The position numbers and the translations under genes are program-made. Of a stretch of DNA of 64,000 bases, positions 12,918 to 57,653 are shown piece after piece (positions within the stretch are counted from its first letter, which is position 1; each line of letters begins with the position of its first letter). The DNA is taken from contig JAGVVD010000022.1 of assembly GCA_019135865.1 (NCBI GenBank), positions 108,204-172,203 of the forward strand, read 5' to 3'. Below the pieces are notes generated by a model. It worked only from the letters and a program-made list of their open reading frames with translations. It made no database searches and was not told where the DNA came from. This DNA is from Elusimicrobiota bacterium. GTDB taxonomy: Bacteria > Elusimicrobiota > Elusimicrobia > Elusimicrobiales > UBA9959.

Positions 12918-12979
12918 CGAAAAATTCTAACAAATTATAGGGGGTTAATCACGCGGTATCCGCGGGCGGGGGCCGGAAT

Positions 12980-12987
12980 TGTATAAT
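12980..12987 (+). promoter_or_regulatory. TG + TATAAT (-10) box, 6 nt upstream of ATG 12994
   Basis: The sequence reads ttgTATAATttaggcATG. No Shine-Dalgarno sequence lies between the box and the ATG. Confidence 0.45.
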
Positions 12988-12993
12988 TTAGGC

Positions 12994-13776
12994 ATGAAAC
13001 AGGACCCCAAAGACGCTCGGGCGAGACTGTTCTGGGACCGCAAAGCGGCGGGCTATCCTTCCCCGCTGGCGCCGGCCACGCTGAAAGCCACGCGCAGGAC
13101 CCTCTCGATGATGCGCCGCCTGGGCGCGGAATGGCGGGGGCTCGACGTGCTGGACATAGGCTGCGGCACGGGCCTGTTCGCCCTGGCCATGGCCCCGGCC
13201 GCGCGGCGGGTGGTCGGCACGGACCTGTCCCCCAGGATGCTGGCGCGCATGAAGGCGGAAGCCTCGGCCGCCGGCCTGTGCAACGCGGAGGCGTTCAGGG
13301 CCGACTGGAAAAAATTGCCGGCCTCCGTGCTGAAGGGCCGTTTCGGCCTGGCCGTGGCCTCGATGACCTCGGCCGTCGGGACTCCCGCCGAGGTCCGGAA
13401 GATGGAGGCCTGCGCGGAAAAATGCGCCTACGTGGGCTGGTACGGGGTCAGGAAGAACCCCGTGATGGAAGCCGTCTTCCGTCTGCACGGCCTGCCCTAC
13501 CTCTCCCCGGAAGGCGCGTCGCGCGTCGAGCGCTCCCTTAAGACGCTGGGCCGCCGCTTCCGCAAAAAGGTGTTCGCCGAGGTCCGGCGGCGGGAAGAAC
13601 CCCTCGAAAAGGCCCTGCGCGAGGCGCGGGCCCACATAGAGATAAACGGCGTGAAATTCCGCAGAAAAGAGACCGGGGAACTGCTTAAAAAGCTGTTCCC
13701 CGGCGGTACCGTGCGCCAGCGGACCGAGGCCCGCAAGGCGCTCTTCGTCTGGTCCGGTCCTAAGCGGCGGCCTTGA
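12994..13776 (+). CDS. class I SAM-dependent methyltransferase
   Basis: SAM motif I is present ([16 protein letters not shown]), followed by [11 protein letters not shown]. The start is placed at the first ATG; the ORF-track start at 12979 is a TTG lying inside the -10 box. Confidence 0.75.
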
Positions 13777-29674: not shown

Positions 29675-29735
29675 TCCCGGCTCCGGCCGCCGTCCCCGGC
29701 CTCCCCCCGGGATTCCTGGGCCGACGCATCCAATC

Positions 29736-29932
29736 GGTTCCCCGAAGGCTCCCGCGCTCGTCACGGTTCGGGTTTTCCGGGCCCACCCTTCGCTCGTTCG
29801 GCCTCGCAAGAACTCGGCCGTCGCGCATAGCGCTAGGCCTCAAACATTCTTGCTCGTCCGCAGAGCGGTACCCTCTCTCGCTCGGGGGAAAACCCTCCTC
29901 ATGTGACTCGCTGCGGGAGCCTCCGGGGAACC
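29736..29932 (-). repeat. intergenic structured repeat, module 1, copy A
   Basis: The reverse complement aligns end to end with 36561-36759. The termini 29736-29755 and 29913-29932 are complementary at 19 of 20 positions. Confidence 0.8.
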
Positions 29933-29954
29933 GACCTGTTAAACGTCCCATCTA

Positions 29955-30105
29955 AGGAGACAGCCGGGGGAGGCGTACCCTCACCGGAGCAAAACCCTTC
30001 GGAGCCGCGAGCTTGCATAAGCGCGAGCGGCGAGAACGGGAAGGGCGCGCACGGTGTGCGCGACCCTGTTTTTGCGAGGTGAGGGCACGCCATGCCCCCG
30101 GCATA
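29955..30105 (+). repeat. intergenic structured repeat, module 2, copy A
   Basis: It shares aggagacagccgggggaggcg and catgcccccggcat with 53621-53770 (reverse complement). It shares aaacccttcggagccgcgagctt and ggcgagaacggga..ggcgcgcacggtgtgcgcgacc with 52299-52512 (reverse complement). Confidence 0.8.
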
Positions 30106-30186
30106 GTTCTTCGTATTGCCTGCGGATGGGACGGGGGGGGCGGATTGACTTGCGGGCCGATAGTTAATATCTTATACGCTCTTATC

Positions 30187-33046: not shown

Positions 33047-33733
33047 ATGCCTCCCATCGAGGAAGTCATCGGTTATTCCTTCAGGGATAAGGATCTCCTG
33101 AGGACGGCGCTCACTCACAAGTCCTACGCCGCCGAAAAACATTCGGCGGAATGCAACGAAAGACTGGAATTCCTGGGCGACAGCGTGCTCGGTCTCGCTG
33201 TCGCCCGGTATCTTTACGGGGAGCACCCCGGCAGGGACGAGGGGCATCTCTCCAAGCTCAAATCCTTCCTCGTCTCGCGCCAGAACCTCGCGTCCTGGGC
33301 GCGCGCCATAAACCTCGGCGAGCACCTGCTGCTCGGCGTGGGCGAAGCCCAGACCGGCGGGAAGAAACGCACCAGCATACTGGCCAACTCGCTCGAAGCC
33401 CTGCTGGCGGCCGTCTATCTGGACGGCGGCATAGCCGAAGCCGAGCGGCTGGTGCTGGGCTGGGTCTCCGCCTCCGAACCCGAAGACCCCGAAGCCGACC
33501 ATAAGAGCCGTCTCCAGGAACTCATCCAGAAGAAGCATCACCGCACCCCGGAATACGAGATCGTCCGCTCGGAGGGGCCGGAACACGACAAGAGTTTCAC
33601 CGTCAACGTGCGTCTCGGGCGCAAGGTCCTGGGCATGGGCGCCGGCAAGAACAAGAAAGAGGCGCAGCAGGCCGCGGCCCGCAACGCACTCGACTACCTG
33701 GAGCACAATGAGCTCGGCAGGGACGAGATCTAG
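33047..33733 (+). CDS. rnc: ribonuclease III
   Basis: The signature NERLEFLGDSVL is present. A C-terminal dsRBD follows (GPEHDKSFTV...GAGKNKKEAQQAAA). Confidence 0.95.
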   Translation: MPPIEEVIGYSFRDKDLLRTALTHKSYAAEKHSAECNERLEFLGDSVLGLAVARYLYGEHPGRDEGHLSKLKSFLVSRQNLASWARAINLGEHLLLGVGEAQTGGKKRTSILANSLEALLAAVYLDGGIAEAERLVLGWVSASEPEDPEADHKSRLQELIQKKHHRTPEYEIVRSEGPEHDKSFTVNVRLGRKVLGMGAGKNKKEAQQAAARNALDYLEHNELGRDEI

Positions 33734-34328: not shown

Positions 34329-35163
34329 CCGGCGGGCGCCCCAGCAGGTCCTCGACTCCCCTGTACTTCCCGGAGAAAACATTGTCGGCGGCCGTCATGC
34401 GGTACTGGTCCCGCGTCATGGGCGGAACGGGCAGCAGCGCCAGCAGCGGCAGCGCCGGCGCGAAGAAGGACCGCGGCAGACCCAGCACCGGCCGTTTTAT
34501 CCCCAGTTCCCGCAGCGAAGCCCGGAAGAACTCCGCGTAACTCATCGCCTGCGGCCCGCAGAGCTCAAAAACCTCCCCTTTGATATCCGACTCCAGCGCC
34601 CTCACCACGCATTCCGCCGCGTCGGCGAGCGCCACCGGCTGCAGCCGCCTGTCAGACGGCGCGGCCAGCGCCGGAGCGAAGCGGGCCAGTCCGCGCAGGT
34701 CTTCGTAGAACTTCTGGCCCGGCCCGGTTATCACCGACGGGCGCAGCACGGCCCAGTCCAGGCGGGAGGCGGCCAGCGCGTCCTCGGCCAGGCCTTTCGT
34801 GCGCAGGTAACGGCTGCGCGAAGAAGCGTCGGCCCCCAGCGCCGAGACCTGCACGAAGCGGCGCGTGCCGGCGGCCGCCGCTCCCTCCAGCAGTCTGTGC
34901 GTGTAATCGAGGTTGACCCGCTCGAAAGTGACGCCTTCCTGCGGGCATTCCCTGAGTATGCCCAGGAAATTGACGACGGCCTCGGGGCGATGCTCTTCGA
35001 CCAGCGCGGCCAGGTCCTCCATGAAGCGCGCGCCGTCGGGGCGCAGGTCCGGGGGAAGGGAGGACGGCGCCCGGGAAGGAATGACCAGCTTATGGCGCCC
35101 GGCCAGCAGGCGCGCGACGGCTCCGCCGAAAAAACCCCCGCCGCCGGCCAGAAGGACTTTCAT
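34300..35163 (-). CDS. NAD(P)-binding atypical SDR, complex I NDUFA9-like family
   Basis: 287 aa. A Rossmann motif is present (LLAGGGGFFGGAV). The blocks FVQVSALGAD...RYLRTKGLAED...LRPSVITGPGQKF match the NDUFA9/NmrA-like pattern. The gene is divergent from nuoA. Confidence 0.65.
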   Translation of the reverse strand: MKVLLAGGGGFFGGAVARLLAGRHKLVIPSRAPSSLPPDLRPDGARFMEDLAALVEEHRPEAVVNFLGILRECPQEGVTFERVNLDYTHRLLEGAAAAGTRRFVQVSALGADASSRSRYLRTKGLAEDALAASRLDWAVLRPSVITGPGQKFYEDLRGLARFAPALAAPSDRRLQPVALADAAECVVRALESDIKGEVFELCGPQAMSYAEFFRASLRELGIKRPVLGLPRSFFAPALPLLALLPVPPMTRDQYRMTAADNVFSGKYRGVEDLLGRPPVRAFGSPLR

Positions 35164-35232
35164 ACCATCGATTCTACAACATTGCGGCGGCCGCTTAAAA
35201 ACCGCCTTATTTTGATAAAATTAAATATCTCT

Positions 35233-35586
35233 ATGGACAACTACGCGGCGACGCTTATAGCGGCCGGCTTCGGCCTGGCGGTAGCGGGGGGGATGACGAT
35301 ACTCGCCGTCCTGCTGGGCCCGCGCAGCCGCGGCGCGGTCAAGGATCTGCCCTTCGAATGCGGCATGCCGACGGCGCAGAAGTCCGCCACCGCCATCCCC
35401 GTCAATTTCTACCTGGTCGCCATACTCTTCGTCATGTTCGACATAGAGATAGTCTTCCTCTATCCCTGGGCCGTCTCCTTCCGCCAGCTCGGCCCCGGCG
35501 CGCTGGCGGCCATGGCGGCCTTCATACTGGTGCTCGGCGCGGGCCTGCTCTACGCCGTAAAGAGGGGGGCGCTCGAATGGGACTAG
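35233..35586 (+). CDS. nuoA: NADH-quinone oxidoreductase subunit A
   Basis: 117 aa. Conserved NuoA blocks are FECGMP and FDIEIVFLYPWA. Confidence 0.9.
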   Translation: MDNYAATLIAAGFGLAVAGGMTILAVLLGPRSRGAVKDLPFECGMPTAQKSATAIPVNFYLVAILFVMFDIEIVFLYPWAVSFRQLGPGALAAMAAFILVLGAGLLYAVKRGALEWD

Positions 35587-36065
35587 AGACGCTCTTCGGC
35601 AATTCCTTCCTGACCACCCGCCTCGACGAGGCGATCAACTGGGGGCGCAAGTATTCCTTCTTCCAGTACCCCTTCGTCACGGCCTGCTGCGGCATGGAGT
35701 TCATGAGCGCCTGGGCCTCCACCTACGACATCGCCCGCTTCGGCGCGGAATACCCGCGCTTCTCGCCGCGCCAGGCCGACGTGCTGTTCGTCGTCGGCAC
35801 GGTCAACGAGAAACTGGCCCCGGTCCTGCGCCGCGTCTACGACCAGATGTGCGACCCCAAGTGGGTCGTCTCTTTCGGCGTCTGCGCCACCTCCGGCGGC
35901 TTCTACGACAATTACGCCACCGTGCAGGGGATAGACAAGATCATCCCCGTCGACATCTATATCCCCGGCTGCCCGCCCCGCCCCGAGGCCGTGCTCGACG
36001 CGCTGGTGAAGCTCCAGAAAAAAGTCTCCAAAGAATCCGTGCTGGACAGGGAACATGACCGCTGA
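35577..36065 (+). CDS. nuoB: NADH-quinone oxidoreductase subunit B
   Basis: 162 aa. The N2 cluster ligands are present in CCGMEFM, GVCATSGG and PGCPPRPE. Confidence 0.95.
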   Translation: MGLETLFGNSFLTTRLDEAINWGRKYSFFQYPFVTACCGMEFMSAWASTYDIARFGAEYPRFSPRQADVLFVVGTVNEKLAPVLRRVYDQMCDPKWVVSFGVCATSGGFYDNYATVQGIDKIIPVDIYIPGCPPRPEAVLDALVKLQKKVSKESVLDREHDR

Positions 36066-36531
36066 AAACGCGCTCGAAGCCCTCAAGGCCAGGCTCGGCG
36101 GCAAGGTCGTCGAAACCTCCTCCTTCCGCGGCGACGATACCGCCGTAGTAACGCCCGAAGCCTGGCTGGAGGCCGCCTCCGCGCTGAAGAACGGACTCGG
36201 CTTCGATTTCCTCATGGACCTCTGCGGCGCCGACTACCTGCCGCGCGAGCCCCGCTTCGAGGTCGTCTGCCATTTCTACAGTTCGAAGACCGGCGCCCGC
36301 CTGCGCCTCAAGACCCGCCTGCCCGGAGGCAAACCGGCCGTGGATTCGCTGGCCGGCCTCTGGCTCTCCGCCGACTGGTTCGAGCGCGAGGCCTGGGACA
36401 TGTACGGCATAGATTTCAAGGGCCATCCCGACCTGCGCCGCCTGCTGATGTACGATTCCTTCGAGGGCCATCCCCTGCGCAAGGATTACCCGCTCAAAGG
36501 CCGCCAGCCGAGGATAGACCATGCGGATTAA
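36055..36531 (+). CDS. nuoC: NADH-quinone oxidoreductase subunit C
   Basis: 158 aa. The conserved NuoC block ADWFEREAWDMYGIDFKGHPDLRRLL is present. Confidence 0.95.
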   Translation: MTAENALEALKARLGGKVVETSSFRGDDTAVVTPEAWLEAASALKNGLGFDFLMDLCGADYLPREPRFEVVCHFYSSKTGARLRLKTRLPGGKPAVDSLAGLWLSADWFEREAWDMYGIDFKGHPDLRRLLMYDSFEGHPLRKDYPLKGRQPRIDHAD

Positions 36532-36560
36532 GGGAACAACGGGGATGCCGAGAAAGGCGG

Positions 36561-36759
36561 GGTTGACGGACGGACTTGCGGCGAGTCACATGCGGAGGTT
36601 TTTCCTCGAGCGAACGAGGGGACCGGCACTGCCGGACGGGCATGATTGTTCGAGGCCCGAGGCGCTATGCGCCCGGGCCGAGTTCGTGCCCGGCCGAGTG
36701 AGCGAAGAGCGGGCCCGGAAAAACCGGACCATGACGAGCGCGAGGCCGTCCGGCAAACC
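36561..36759 (+). repeat. intergenic structured repeat, module 1, copy B (between nuoC and nuoD)
   Basis: It aligns with the reverse complement of 29736-29932. Shared blocks are gcgagtcacatg.ggagg, cgagcga, gcgctatgcgc, ggccgagttc, gagcgaag, gggcccggaaaa and gacgagcgcg. Its own termini are complementary. Confidence 0.8.
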
Positions 36760-36812
36760 GACGCACTTCGTGGTGAGCCGGCGGCAGCACCACAAAGTTC
36801 TCCACTAATAAC

Positions 36813-38026
<1,214 letters not shown>

Positions 38027-38030
<4 letters not shown>

Positions 38031-38524: not shown

Positions 38525-39783
38525 TGGCGGAGCAGATACTTTTAAAGCACAAAGTGGTGTCGCTGGACGGCTACAAGGCCTCCGGCGGCTGGACCGCGCT
38601 CGAGAAGGCCACGCGCATGGAACCGGCCGCCATCATAGACGAGGTGAAGAAGTCCGGCCTGCGCGGCCGCGGCGGTGCCGGCTTCCCGGCCGGCCTGAAA
38701 TGGTCGTTCATCCCCAAGGACAGCGCCAAAGAGCGTTACGTCGTCTGCAACGCCGACGAGGGCGAACCCGGCACTTTCAAGGACCGCGAACTGATCCGCA
38801 TGAACCCCTACCTGCTCATCGAGGGGATGGCCATAGCCGGCCGCGCGATAGGGGCGAAGACCGGCTACATATACGTGCGCGGCGAATTCGCCCGCGAAGC
38901 CGCCCTGCTGGAGAAATGCATAGGCGAGGCGAAAGTAGCAGGTTTCCTGGGCGAGAAGCTCTTCGGCTCCGGTTTCAGTTTCGACCTGCACGTCCACAAG
39001 GGCGCCGGCGCCTATATCTGCGGAGAAGAGACGGCCCTGCTGGAATCGATCGAAGGCCGGCGCGGCCAGCCGCGCCTCAAGCCCCCGTTCCCCGCCGTCG
39101 AAGGACTTTTCGCCTGCCCGACGGTCATCAACAATGTCGAAACGCTGGCCGCCGTGCCCGCGATAATAGAGAAGGGCGGGGCATGGTACGCCGGCATCGG
39201 CGCGGGCAAGAGCACCGGCACCAAGCTTTTCTCGATAAGCGGCCCCGTGAAAAAGCCCGGCGTCTACGAAGCCGAGCTGGGCATACCCTTTAAAACCTTC
39301 CTGGAAGAATACGCCGGCGGCATGGCCGACGGCAAAAAGCTCAAGGCCGTCATCCCCGGCGGCTCGTCCACGCCCGTGCTTACCGCCGAAGAGGCGATGA
39401 ACGCCAGGCTCGACTACGAGTCGCTGGCCGCCGCCGGCTCCATGCTGGGCTCGGGGGGGATAATAGTCATAGCCGAAGACACCTGCATGGTGGACGCCCT
39501 GCTGGTCCTGGCCAGATTCTACCATCACGAATCCTGCGGCCAGTGCACGCCCTGCCGCGAAGGCACCGGCTGGACCGAGAAAGTCCTGCGCCGCTTCGAG
39601 GAAGGCGGGGCCGGGCCCGGCGACGCCGACCTGCTGCTCTCCATCTCCAACAACATGGTGGGCCGCACCATCTGCCCCCTGGCCGACGCCCTCGCCATGC
39701 CCGTCATCAGCTTTATAACCAAGTTCCGCGAAGAGTTCGACGCCCACGCCGCCGGCAACACCTGCAGGATGGGCCGAAAATGA
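38524..39783 (+). CDS. nuoF: NADH-quinone oxidoreductase subunit F
   Basis: 419 aa. It has the FMN/NADH site GRGGAGFPAG, plus CNADEGEPGTFKDR. The N3 cluster motif is ESCGQCTPCREG. Confidence 0.95.
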   Translation: MAEQILLKHKVVSLDGYKASGGWTALEKATRMEPAAIIDEVKKSGLRGRGGAGFPAGLKWSFIPKDSAKERYVVCNADEGEPGTFKDRELIRMNPYLLIEGMAIAGRAIGAKTGYIYVRGEFAREAALLEKCIGEAKVAGFLGEKLFGSGFSFDLHVHKGAGAYICGEETALLESIEGRRGQPRLKPPFPAVEGLFACPTVINNVETLAAVPAIIEKGGAWYAGIGAGKSTGTKLFSISGPVKKPGVYEAELGIPFKTFLEEYAGGMADGKKLKAVIPGGSSTPVLTAEEAMNARLDYESLAAAGSMLGSGGIIVIAEDTCMVDALLVLARFYHHESCGQCTPCREGTGWTEKVLRRFEEGGAGPGDADLLLSISNNMVGRTICPLADALAMPVISFITKFREEFDAHAAGNTCRMGRK

Positions 39784-52298: not shown

Positions 52299-52512
52299 AA
52301 GTGAAAATTATCGGGGGTCCTGTCGGCGGTTCGCTGCGAAAAAACGCGGTCGCGCACACCGTGCGCGCCGCTCCCGTTCTCGCCGCGAGCGCTCGCCCTG
52401 CGCCTCCGTTCCGCGAGAAGCGACGCGGTGTAGTACTTCGGCGCGGGCTCCGTAAGCTCGCGGCTCCGAAGGGTTTTTCTCCGCGAATCCGCCGCCACCC
52501 CCCATTGCCTCC
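52299..52512 (-). repeat. intergenic structured repeat, module 2, copy C (between ribD and ribE)
   Basis: The reverse complement shares the core of 29955-30105 and carries a roughly 45-nt internal insertion. It fills the whole 214-bp ribD-ribE gap. Confidence 0.8.
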
Positions 52513-53604: not shown

Positions 53605-53620
53605 AGCAACAAGGAATATC

Positions 53621-53770
53621 CATGCCGGGGGCATGTCGGGGCGGCAGCGCGCGAAACACGGGCTCTCGCGCATAGCGCTCGGCCCTCCTCACTCGGCCTC
53701 CGCGCTTGCGATGCTCCGGCCTCCGTGAAGGTTTCGCTAAGCTGCCGCCCCGCCTCCCCCGGTTGTCTCC
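53621..53770 (-). repeat. intergenic structured repeat, module 2, copy E (between ribH and ribD)
   Basis: The reverse complement starts aggagacaaccgggggaggcg directly after the ribH TGA and ends catgcccccggcat, as in copy A. An internal perfect 10-bp stem pairs 53638-53647 with 53742-53751. Confidence 0.75.
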
Positions 53771-54229
53771 TCACAAATGCCGGAACAGGTCGGCCATTTC
53801 GATGGCGGCCATGGCGGCCTCGGCGCCCTTGTTGCCCTGCTTGGTGCCGCAGCGCTCGATGGCCTGCTCCAGGTTGTCCGCGGCGACGACGCCGAAAATG
53901 ACCGGTTTCTTATGGCGCATGGAGACTTCGGCCACGCCCTTGGCCGTCTCGGCCGCGACCAGGTCGAAGTGCGGGGTGTCTCCGCGGATGATGACGCCCA
54001 GGCAGATGACGGCGTCATAATTGCCGGCGGCGGCCTTGTCGGCGGCCAGCGCCAGTTCGTAGGCGCCCGGCACTTTTACCAGGGTTATGTCCTTCTCGTC
54101 GGCGCCGTGCCTCTTCAGCGTGTCGACGGCCCCGTCGGCCAGCTTGCCGGTCAGGAAGTCGTTGAACCGGGACACGGCCAGAGCGAACTTGAGTTTATCC
54201 GCTTTGAGTTTTCCTTCTATTATCTTCAT
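53771..54229 (-). CDS. ribH: 6,7-dimethyl-8-ribityllumazine synthase
   Basis: 152 aa. Conserved blocks are FALAVSRFN, VPGAYELA and VICLGVIIRGDTPHFD. Confidence 0.95.
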   Translation of the reverse strand: MKIIEGKLKADKLKFALAVSRFNDFLTGKLADGAVDTLKRHGADEKDITLVKVPGAYELALAADKAAAGNYDAVICLGVIIRGDTPHFDLVAAETAKGVAEVSMRHKKPVIFGVVAADNLEQAIERCGTKQGNKGAEAAMAAIEMADLFRHL

Positions 54230-55470: not shown

Positions 55471-55511
55471 GGAAAAGCCGCACAAAAACCGCGCGCGGCC
55501 TTTACATCGGT

Positions 55512-55643
55512 CCTTCTCTCATCCGGACTTTACCGTCGGCCCCGGGATCTCACCGGGTCCTGCCTCGGGCTGCCGCCCTCGGCTCGCGGGCTCGCCGCTT
55601 TCGCGGACCACCGCCGGTGGGGAATCTCGCCCCGCCCTGAAGA
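55512..55643 (-). promoter_or_regulatory. FMN riboswitch (RFN element) aptamer
   Basis: The minus strand contains the conserved RFN blocks AGGGCGGGGCGAGATTCCCCACCGGCGGT, CCCGCGAGC, GGACCCGGTGAGATCCCGGGGCCGACGGTAAAGTCCGGATGAGAGAAGG. It lies in the 5' leader of ribBA. Confidence 0.9.
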
Positions 55644-55652
55644 ACCGCTTTA

Positions 55653-55826: not shown

Positions 55827-57653
55827 GTGAGCGCCGCGGAACCCCGGTCCGGGCCCGAGATCGGTTTCCTCTGGGACGCCATGTCCAGCGCCCAGGAGGA
55901 AGCCGAACGGCTTTCCGGCGACTACTCGAAGATCGTCAAGCGGACCGAGGAGCTCGATTCCCGCCTGGCCCATCTGGACCGCCTGCTGCTGGAAGCCGCC
56001 GCTCGTGAAACGGCGCTGAAGGCCGAGATCGAGGCCCTGCACGCCGCCGCCGCGGACAAGGACGAACTCGTCAAGAAGGCCGCGGGCCTGCTGCAGGCCC
56101 ACGCGGCCATGGCGGAGCGGGCGGAAAAACTCGCGGCCCTTCTCGATTCGGAAAAGGAGCGCGTGGCGCTCATGGAAGCGGAGCGCGCCGGCCTGGAAAA
56201 TTTCGCGAAAGGGGAGGAGGCCCGGGCGGCGGCGCTGGAGGAACGTTTCCGGGCCATAGCGGCCATCGAACCGCTGGCGAAAGTGCTGGACGCCGCCGCG
56301 CGGGGAGCGGAGAGCCGCGTTTCACCCGAGGAGATACTGACCAGGCTGACCTCGGCCGACGCGGAGACCGCGAAGCTTTCCGCCGCCCTGGAGGCGCGTT
56401 CCAAAGAGGCCTCCGAACTGGCGGAGAAAATAGCCGCCCTCGCGGCGGGAAAAGAAGCGGTGGAAAAGCAGCTGAAACTGACCGCGGAACGGGCGGCGGA
56501 ACTGGAAAGCGAACTGACCGCCCTCAAAGCTTCCGCCGGACGCGCGCAACTGGCGACGCGGGAAGCCGCGGACGCAGCGGACCGGGTGGACCGCGCCGCC
56601 CACGACAAACTCCTCGACAGGCTGGCCGCGGCCGAAACCGAGACCGGCAGGCTGTCCGCCCAGCTGGAGGCGCGCCTGACGGAAGCCTCCTCGCTGGCCG
56701 CCGAAATAACCGGTCTCAAGGCGGGCAAAGAGGCGCTGGAAAAAGAACTTTCGCTTGCCCGGGAACGGGCGCAGGTACTGGAGCGCGAACTGACCGCTCT
56801 TAAAGCCTCCGCAGCTGGCCCGGCCCGGGAGACGCCGGAGGCCGTGTACGACGCGGGAGGGGTGGACCGCGCTTCGCACGATAAGCTCCTCGCCAGGCTG
56901 ACCGCGGCCGAAGCCGAGACCCGCAGACTCTCCGCCGACCTGGAAACCAACATTAGAGAGGCCTCTTCCCTGGCCGGCGAGATCGTCGGACTGAAGGCGG
57001 CCAAAGAGGCGCTGGAAAAGCAGCTGACCCTGGCGGCGGAACAGACGGCGGCGCTGCAGCGCGAACTGGCCGTCGCCAAAGCCGGCGGCGGCGCGGAACA
57101 GGGACCGGGAAAAGCGCCGGCCGGTCTGGACGACGCTGAGAAGAAGCTGGCGGCGGTGCAGGCCGAACTGCTGGAGTTGCGCGGACGGGAAGAGGAACTG
57201 AGGAAAAAGGACTTCGGGCGCGAAGCCGAGCTGACCGCCCTGCGGAACCAGCTCGCGGAGGCGCAGGTCCAGATAGAACAGGAGAAGCACGACTTCGAGG
57301 AAGCCGCCAATACCGTTTTCGACCTGCAGGGCGAGACCGCCTCGCTGAGTTCCAGCCTGGAAGAAGCGCTGGCGCGGGAGAAGGCCCTCGCCGCCAGGCT
57401 CGGCGAAGGCGGCGCCCCGGCGGACACACGGGGACAGGCCGCGCTCGCCGAAAAGCTCGGCGGGGAACTGAACAGGATCTCGGAGAAACTCTCTCTTTTC
57501 AGCGGACGTCTGGCGGACCCGGAGCGCGCGGAACTGGCCGCCCTGCTCAAGGAGCTGGCCGCCGCGGCCGCGCTGCTCAAGACCTGGCGGGCCGGCGGCG
57601 GCGGGTCCGGGGCCGGAGAACCGCCGCCGACCCCGCCGACGGAACCCCGTTGA
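55827..57653 (+). CDS. Ala/Glu/Leu-rich coiled-coil protein with three about 92-aa tandem repeats
   Basis: 608 aa with a GTG start preceded by GGGGAGG. Heptad-like A/E/L composition runs throughout, with strong GC3 bias. The C-terminus is Gly/Pro-rich. Confidence 0.7.
   Translation: MSAAEPRSGPEIGFLWDAMSSAQEEAERLSGDYSKIVKRTEELDSRLAHLDRLLLEAAARETALKAEIEALHAAAADKDELVKKAAGLLQAHAAMAERAEKLAALLDSEKERVALMEAERAGLENFAKGEEARAAALEERFRAIAAIEPLAKVLDAAARGAESRVSPEEILTRLTSADAETAKLSAALEARSKEASELAEKIAALAAGKEAVEKQLKLTAERAAELESELTALKASAGRAQLATREAADAADRVDRAAHDKLLDRLAAAETETGRLSAQLEARLTEASSLAAEITGLKAGKEALEKELSLARERAQVLERELTALKASAAGPARETPEAVYDAGGVDRASHDKLLARLTAAEAETRRLSADLETNIREASSLAGEIVGLKAAKEALEKQLTLAAEQTAALQRELAVAKAGGGAEQGPGKAPAGLDDAEKKLAAVQAELLELRGREEELRKKDFGREAELTALRNQLAEAQVQIEQEKHDFEEAANTVFDLQGETASLSSSLEEALAREKALAARLGEGGAPADTRGQAALAEKLGGELNRISEKLSLFSGRLADPERAELAALLKELAAAAALLKTWRAGGGGSGAGEPPPTPPTEPR
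56313..57090 (+). repeat. intragenic tandem triplication, 276-nt period
   Basis: Units starting near 56313, 56589 and 56865 encode (H)DKLL.RL.AAE.ET.RLSA.LE....EASSLA.EI.GLKA.KEALEK.L.LA.E....L.RELTALKAS. DNA identity is about 75% by eye. Confidence 0.7.

Follow-up and report, generated by a model that had tools for sequence, protein, structure and literature searches.

The nuo operon in the 64,000-nt stretch of Elusimicrobiota bacterium DNA analysed here (the window) is interrupted at one junction, that of nuoC and nuoD, where exactly 281 bp (36532-36812) separate the two genes, as had been noted in the initial annotation. This junction is normally tightly coupled and in some bacteria closed altogether, as stated at the outset and borne out by the fused NuoCD proteins found among the more distant NuoD homologues. 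The locus therefore raises the questions of what the intervening DNA is, whether it was inserted, and how nuoD and the genes behind it are expressed. We consider it about 75% probable that the spacer is a 275-bp non-autonomous MITE, belonging to a modular family found only in Elusimicrobia, that is transcribed through and followed by independent initiation of nuoD.

Gene order and the insert between nuoC and nuoD

The genes nuoA to nuoH were identified by Pfam in consecutive order on the positive strand, and the nuo ORFs downstream of the gap are all intact. All other junctions overlap, leaving no spacer: A/B by 10 nt, B/C by 11, D/E by 4, E/F by 1, F/G by 4, G/H by 4, H/I by 16, I/J by 4 or 31, J/K by 4, K/L by 1, L/M by 4 and M/N by 1. 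The overlaps had initially been given as 1-11 nt, a range that is exceeded at nuoH/nuoI and is ambiguous at nuoI/nuoJ, where the start of nuoJ can be placed in two ways. Look-ups of the exact NuoC and NuoD sequences of the window returned no entry. The window NuoD shares 97% amino-acid identity with P0001, its homologues come in all cases from Elusimicrobia metagenome-assembled genomes, and its N-terminus, MERPAHELPKNW, is unchanged relative to relatives that lack the insert.

Within the gap a module-1 copy and a GTGGTG/CACCAC hairpin had been recognised, and both are present. They are not separate units, however, and the module is not bounded at 36561 and 36759 as first proposed; a single element spans 36531-36805, with imperfect terminal inverted repeats of ~30 nt, and the hairpin lies inside the right one (Table 1). 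The interior of ~200 nt has a multi-helix architecture in which nested stems P1-P3 surround a junction with two hairpins (P4 and P5/P6), and purine-rich junction strands connect the helices of the core. The left inverted repeat is predicted to pair with 36798-36803. The TAA stop codon of nuoC (36529-36531) consists of the flanking TA and the first A of the element. The description of the gap as highly structured holds on each strand, with a folding z-score of -4.5 against shuffled sequence.

Table 1. Features of the nuoC-nuoD gap and of the second module-1 copy in the window.
Feature	Position	Strand	Basis or remark
nuoC	36055-36531	+	Pfam Complex1_30kDa, E 3e-45; C-terminus ...RIDHAD*
nuoD	36813-38030	+	Pfam Complex1_49kDa, E 2e-99; intact
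Complete MITE-like element, 275 bp	36531-36805	+	nhmmer match 36531-36802; absent in five close relatives; this site is occupied by orthologous elements in L060/61 and L064/65
Left-flank TA	36529-36530	.	Presumed copy of the target-site duplication, from the family ends
Left terminal inverted repeat, degenerate T1 type, AGGGAACAACGGGGATGCCG...	36531-36565	+	Homologous to family end AGGAATAACTATGCCGGGGGCATGGCG and to the L060 left end
Module-1	36566-36772	+	84-89% identical to paralogues; covarying outer stems
Module-1 outer stems P1/P2	~36566-36592 with 36730-36768	+	Surround the core
Module-1 core	36593-36731	+	Full-length covariance-model match, 149 bits, E 3e-34
Core helix P3	36597-36605/36717-36725	+	
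Core helix P4	36623-36627/36631-36635	+	
Core helix P5	36637-36646/36683-36692	+	
Core helix P6	36654-36665/36669-36679	+	
Right terminal inverted repeat, T1 type	36773-36805	+	Homologous to T1 ends of the '...GGGGGCTGCCGGGGGCTCACCACGAA' subtype and to the L060 and L064 right ends
Hairpin GTGGTG/CACCAC	36770-36775/36788-36793	+	Local, in the right inverted repeat
Right-flank TA (presumed second duplication copy) and ATAAC	36806-36807 and to 36812	+	Same flank in L060; AU-rich nuoD leader, no Shine-Dalgarno sequence
Second module-1 copy	29732-29938 (core 29764-29899)	-	In a three-element cluster, 29675-30140

An earlier placement of the boundary, with insertion after GACCA (36521) and the 9-nt ACCACAAAG (36789-36797) taken as a displaced nuoC tail, is ruled out by the orthologous elements. 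This stretch reads ACCCGAATGG in L060 and TCCCGAACAG in L064 and aligns to the right inverted repeat of the family, and the 9-nt identity arose late in the lineage of the window. The right inverted repeat of the window (around 36778-36797) has changed much more quickly than its orthologue in L060, the two differing at 12 of 46 positions although 4-fold degenerate sites differ by only 10%, and these changes produced both the GTGGTG/CACCAC hairpin and the 9-nt match to the nuoC tail of the empty allele.

Open reading frames of 95-100 aa span the element on both strands of the window (36521-36808, positive; 36528-36830, negative), and a 96-aa 'gene' has been called on the orthologous L064 copy (2211-2501). 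A Pfam search with the element-spanning frames gave zero matches, and they are almost certainly artefacts. Module-1 copies vary by indels of 1-2 nt in alignment.

Empty and filled junctions in related genomes

The claim that a dispersed repeat was inserted between nuoC and nuoD is upheld by the related genomes, in which both empty and filled junctions were found. The empty junction, ...GACCACAAAGACTGATGG, with a 1-nt stop/start overlap (TGATG), occurs in the five close relatives L001, L063, L066, L067 and L068, which all belong to the cluster with at least 90% NuoD identity. The tight junction CACAAAGACTGATGG is present in these five and in the more distant L002-L008 (81-83% NuoD identity), whose nuoC/nuoD gaps measure 1-7 nt and whose NuoC ends in an H-K/R-D* tail like that of the empty alleles. 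These outgroup junctions polarise the change as a gain. Loci L009-L059 contained no nuo genes.

The filled junctions are of two sizes. In L060, L061 and L062, which represent the closest relative of the window (96.9% nuoD nucleotide identity), the junction holds a 128-nt element with the same ends and flanks as that of the window and a different interior, which matches the 'B-type' elements of the family described below. The shorter spacer is thus not an unrelated sequence that happens to occupy the junction, which would have spoken against insertion, but a member of the same repeat superfamily. In the window and in L064/L065 the element is ~280 nt long and contains module-1. The L064 and window modules are 90.8% identical over 206 nt, each being the best match of the other anywhere, which indicates that the two copies are orthologous. 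All filled alleles share the nuoC tail CATGCGGATTAA (HAD*) and all empty alleles the tail CACAAAGACTGA (HKD*).

Measured at nuoD 4-fold sites, the lineages of window/L060, L064 and L001/L063 lie at similar distances from one another (0.235-0.262), so a single insertion in the common ancestor of the filled lineages is possible. On these sequence comparisons, the nuoC-nuoD spacer is a true insertion of a dispersed repeat, and the insertion is old and common to at least three lineages rather than a recent disruption.

A modular repeat family of Elusimicrobia

A second module-1 copy lies on the opposite strand at 29.7 kb, with 79% identity to the copy in the gap over 185 nt (E ~1e-36), a similarity far beyond chance in a 64-kb window. 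It stands in a cluster composed of a partial end, the reversed module-1 and a 162-nt B-type MITE (29955-30116), flanked by yceD and by a gene for a GT2 glycosyltransferase; this cluster is missing from L001, which has only 52 nt at the GT2/yceD site. In a species-representative genome collection that does not include the window's own genome, a search pattern drawn from module-1's right half matched only nine loci, all of them in the genomes of five species of Elusimicrobiales or Elusimicrobiaceae. A central pattern returned 42 metagenome loci or contigs. The fetched loci contain at least 52 copies by nhmmer and 54 matches to the covariance model, all with the same relative strand. All module-1 copies are intergenic, none lying inside a credible gene. 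Among copies between co-directional genes, 10 are co-oriented and 8 anti-oriented with respect to transcription; a further 11 copies are located between convergent genes and only 2 between divergent ones. The earlier remark that the gap copy is reversed relative to the 29.7-kb copy, and that both orientations are tolerated, is therefore well founded. Contigs often end at a module-1 copy, as expected of a multi-copy repeat.

The termini of the superfamily are of two kinds, T1 (TA/AGGAATAACTATGCCGGGGGCATGGCG) and T2 (TA/AGGAGACAGCCGGGGGAGGCG), the slash marking the element boundary. The complete B-type elements, which measure 162 or 211-219 nt, combine a T1 with a T2 terminus. A TAA, TGA or TAG stands immediately before 19 of 23 T2 ends, and most T1 ends follow a TA, which fits duplication of a TA target and inverted repeats starting with A. 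The nuoC/nuoD copy is flanked by TA at 36529-30 and again at 36806-07, a dinucleotide that the junction of the empty alleles lacks. Duplication of a TA target is likely at this copy as judged from the family ends, but it cannot be read off the locus itself, where the final 10 nt of nuoC are not the same in filled (HAD*) and empty (HKD*) alleles and the L064 flanks have drifted. A stop codon made of T(A/G) and the first A of an element is also seen at the L001 nuoF/nuoG and window ribH/ribD insertions.

Filled and empty sites are available at nuoC/nuoD, nuoF/nuoG and GT2/yceD. In L001, a 162-nt B-type MITE (12975-13135) separates nuoF from nuoG, two genes that in the window overlap by ATGA (39780-39783), and a spurious 59-aa gene was called on this MITE by JGI. 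Together with the nuoC/nuoD insertion, this means that the nuo operon has been struck at least twice in the group. The rib operon of the window (ribBA, ribH, ribD and ribE), on the negative strand downstream of an FMN riboswitch (55507-55648), carries a complete 163-nt B-type MITE between ribH and ribD (53609-53771), the first A of which completes the TGA stop of ribH, and repeat modules fill the 214-nt gap between ribD and ribE (52299-52512). A repeat-flanked ORF of 386 aa at 52.5-53.7 kb was considered as a transposase and proved to be RibD. Three tandem 276-nt units (64-74% identical) at 56303-57091 of the window lie within a 608-aa ORF (55827-57653), which looks like a repeat-containing protein. 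In L026 (1810-2065) and L035 (10107-10362), module-1 is split near model position 125 by an extra segment of ~100 nt that may be a nested insertion.

The size of these elements (below ~600 bp), their non-coding nature, terminal inverted repeats, dispersed copies and filled and empty sites are those of MITEs. The fetched loci, ~650 kb in all, yielded neither an autonomous insertion sequence with the same ends nor a transposase between distant T1 and T2 ends; the ORFs in such positions are housekeeping genes. Derivation from IS200/IS605 as a palindrome-associated element was rejected, terminal inverted repeats being present. MITEs derived from IS630/Tc1-mariner elements have TA target duplications and inverted-repeat ends, and the TA flanks seen here may point to a link with that group; the fetched loci contain neither a transposase of IS630 type nor a full-length partner. 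No Rfam family matches the element at the gathering threshold, and the matches at a permissive threshold are at chance level (E >1). Lacking a sequence or Rfam match to any named family, the elements constitute a new modular MITE family.

Several known repeats resemble this family. The Correia elements of Neisseria (CREE/NEMIS) are likewise non-coding MITEs, of ~100-200 bp with terminal inverted repeats of ~26 nt, and have TA at the insertion site. Their many intergenic copies are often co-transcribed, their stems are cut by RNase III, and they can alter the expression of adjacent genes (PMC10969869). Correia elements nevertheless come from a different phylum, have no sequence similarity to the Elusimicrobia element and form a simple long hairpin rather than a multi-helix covarying core, and their IHF sites and promoters are not seen here. 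ERIC and REP/BIME sequences are also intergenic, transcribed palindromic repeats in operons, arranged as mosaics of modules and affecting mRNA stability. REP units, however, are only 20-40 nt long, are mobilised by RAYT and have neither inverted-repeat ends nor a TA signature, whereas the Elusimicrobia unit is larger and TA-flanked; ERIC sequences are ~127 bp and confined to gamma-proteobacteria. The pneumococcal BOX, RUP and SPRITE repeats are small, modular and interspersed, and they cluster and nest (PMC3049150, PMC10969869). The three-element cluster at 29.7 kb behaves in the same way, but the pneumococcal sequences are unrelated, belong to AT-rich Firmicutes and, for BOX, consist of different modules. 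For Elusimicrobia metagenome assemblies, the practical consequences of the family are spurious small ORF calls, contig breaks and inflated counts of hypothetical proteins.

The module-1 core and expression of nuoD

Alignment of 29 module-1 copies reveals nested stems with many compensatory changes. In the long-range helix P3, G(C/G)TTTTTCC is paired to GGAAAAA(G/C)C ~120 nt away; the helix is perfect in 28 of the 29 copies and has six variants that covary, among them variants in which the T-run and the A-run change length in step. This helix was overlooked by RNAalifold on the MAFFT alignment; it was found by eye, checked copy by copy and then confirmed with a covariance model. With hand-drawn P3-P6 on the MAFFT alignment, 93.9% of cells are paired, compared with 30-48% when the partners are slid, and the covariation score is 0.165 versus 0.081 in shuffled alignments, none of 500 shuffles reaching the observed value. 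On the covariance-model alignment of 54 copies, which is fitted to the model and so leans towards the structure, 95.1% of cells are paired, 17 of the 36 pairs have changed on both sides, and the covariation is 0.188 versus 0.071, again with 0/500 shuffles.

The divergence between the orthologous window and L064 copies is unevenly distributed. Module-1 differs at 19 of 205 positions (9.3%) and its 139-nt core at 11 (7.9%), compared with ~52 of 219 nuoD 4-fold sites (23.7%) and 27 of 78 positions in the rest of the element (35%). By Fisher's test, module-1 differs from 4-fold sites with p = 8e-5 and from the rest of the element with p = 1e-6, its divergence between the two orthologues being ~2.5 times slower than that of synonymous sites. 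The core is therefore under constraint at its present site, and the inverted-repeat ends are decaying; this constraint may stem from a role in the nuo transcript or from a property of the element itself, as RNA or as single-stranded DNA. A passive MITE interior would be expected to be much less well conserved, and this conservation, together with the multi-helix covariation, hints at some function.

It is a tentative proposal, and one we regard as rather doubtful, that module-1 is a previously undescribed structured nucleic-acid element, with a ~140-nt core of five helices and conserved purine-rich junction strands, which spread on TA-targeting MITEs, may have been kept for a task in the nuo transcript, for instance as a signal for processing or stability by which nuoA-C and nuoD-N are uncoupled, and is a specific landing site for an IS110-family (bridge-RNA-guided) element. 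Slightly less probable still is the narrower alternative to a tolerated insertion, in which the core or the whole element acts in cis as a functional structured RNA in the nuo transcript, setting the nuoA-C:nuoD-N ratio through processing, stability or decoupling, and is kept by selection. The slow divergence of module-1 and the covariation of its helices, P3 above all, speak for such a role; since the orthologues share derived features, such as the CCTCGAGCGAACGAGG hairpin, and are mutual best matches, gene conversion from paralogues offers no obvious explanation for their similarity. The strand that is sense in nuo, in both lineages, is also the better-folding one, by ~11 kcal/mol over its complement in 28 of 29 copies, although this asymmetry is partly due to the G and A richness of the forward strand. 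Against this role, L060, the closest relative, lacks module-1 at nuoC/nuoD and its nuoD is equally constrained; the family tolerates both orientations and sits mostly at the 3' ends of genes; hairpin-templated repair or a requirement of transposition can likewise produce covariation in nested inverted repeats; and the missing Rfam match counts on the same side. The best reading remains that the element is a tolerated MITE and the insertion a fairly ordinary event apart from the well-conserved folded core, which is a candidate new structured RNA, covarying and conserved in place.

Whatever the role of the core, nuoD has been maintained behind it. Amino-acid divergence of nuoD is 0.5% where 4-fold divergence is 10% (window-L060) and 4.2% where it is 23.7% (window-L064), and such strong purifying selection in the insert-bearing lineages indicates that nuoD is still expressed. 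As noted initially, nuoD has no Shine-Dalgarno sequence, the 21 nt before its ATG (aaagttctccactaataac) being without GGAG, GAGG or AGGA. This is not exceptional in these genomes; a Shine-Dalgarno-like motif precedes only ~40-55% of the genes of L001 and L002, and nuoA and yceD have AU-rich leaders without one. Positions -9 to -1 of nuoD have a predicted unpaired probability of ~0.9, and the mean predicted accessibility of the start region, 0.54-0.55, comes close to the 0.59-0.60 of the native L001 junction. A search of the positive strand from 36400 to 36900 for an intrinsic terminator (a GC-rich hairpin followed by a T run) and a consensus scan of 35000-38000 for sigma-70-like promoters both found none, with consensus sequences that may not fit Elusimicrobia.

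Three routes had been put forward for expression of nuoD-N, namely read-through of the insert, re-initiation without a Shine-Dalgarno sequence, and a new start point next to the element. The first two, in combination, are favoured here, and we infer this mode of expression from the sequence and the modelled leader structure. A new promoter in or beside the element, which would drive nuoD-N and split the operon into two transcription units, is improbable: other MITEs such as Correia do have outward-facing promoters (PMC10969869) and a weak TTGACG-17-TCACAT match can be discerned by eye at 36562-36590, but the sigma-70-like scan was empty and the TTGAC motif is conserved neither in other copies nor in the L060 element at the same junction. 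Least credible of all is that the spacer is ancestral and was deleted in the tight-junction relatives, for although the near-equal distances of the three lineages mean that the tree alone does not polarise the change, L002-L008 all have the tight gaps and H-K/R-D* tail, no homologous spacer was seen at nuoC/nuoD in outgroup Elusimicrobia, and the insert belongs to a dispersed family with inverted-repeat ends.

Under the preferred reading of a tolerated MITE, the element would have entered the nuoC/nuoD stop/start junction in an ancestor that the window has in common with two or more of the other lineages sampled. The TA and the element's A would have supplied the nuoC TAA and the nuoD ATG would have been kept, leaving the length of both proteins unaltered, and the interior would later have been swapped in the L060 lineage, probably by recombination with another family member. 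RNA polymerase would transcribe straight through the element, the TGATG translational coupling of nuoC to nuoD would be lost, and nuoD would have its own initiation at a short AU-rich leader that is predicted to be unpaired and, like those of nuoA and yceD, lacks a Shine-Dalgarno sequence. Correia and ERIC sequences located inside transcripts are associated with RNase III cleavage and promoter effects (PMC10969869), and by analogy with Correia the long stems of the present element may be RNase III substrates, splitting nuoABC from nuoD-N. An RNase III gene is present in the window at 33047-33733, as identified from the Pfam families of its L001 orthologue.

A structured insert of 128-283 nt has thus been tolerated at the nuoC-nuoD junction over long evolutionary time, with the constraint on nuoD kept, in a phylum in which many genes lack Shine-Dalgarno starts. 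The locus provides a natural series of three states, namely empty, short element and module-1 element, that can be used to test the effects of operon-internal repeats on transcription, processing and translational coupling.

Module-1 also appears to be a target for other mobile DNA. An IS110-family transposase gene (L028 1089-2051; Pfam DEDD_Tnp_IS110 and Transposase_20) adjoins a 5'-truncated module-1 core (L028 700-2266), and the same arrangement is found at the 5' edge of module-1 copies in L026, L030, L035, L036, L037, L046, L049, L056 and L059. The breakpoint is constant, ...GGTTATACAA/GCTTTTTCC, and the target site within module-1 reads ...GGAG/CTTTTTCC. From locus to locus the insertion-sequence flank keeps 97-100% identity, whereas the adjoining cores differ by ~15%. 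IS110-family elements insert specifically at REP sequences (PMC1525189, PMC11208160), and the use of one fixed module-1 site parallels that targeting; from the one junction seen, this looks like site-specific insertion into module-1, similar to that of IS621 and ISPpu9 at REP.
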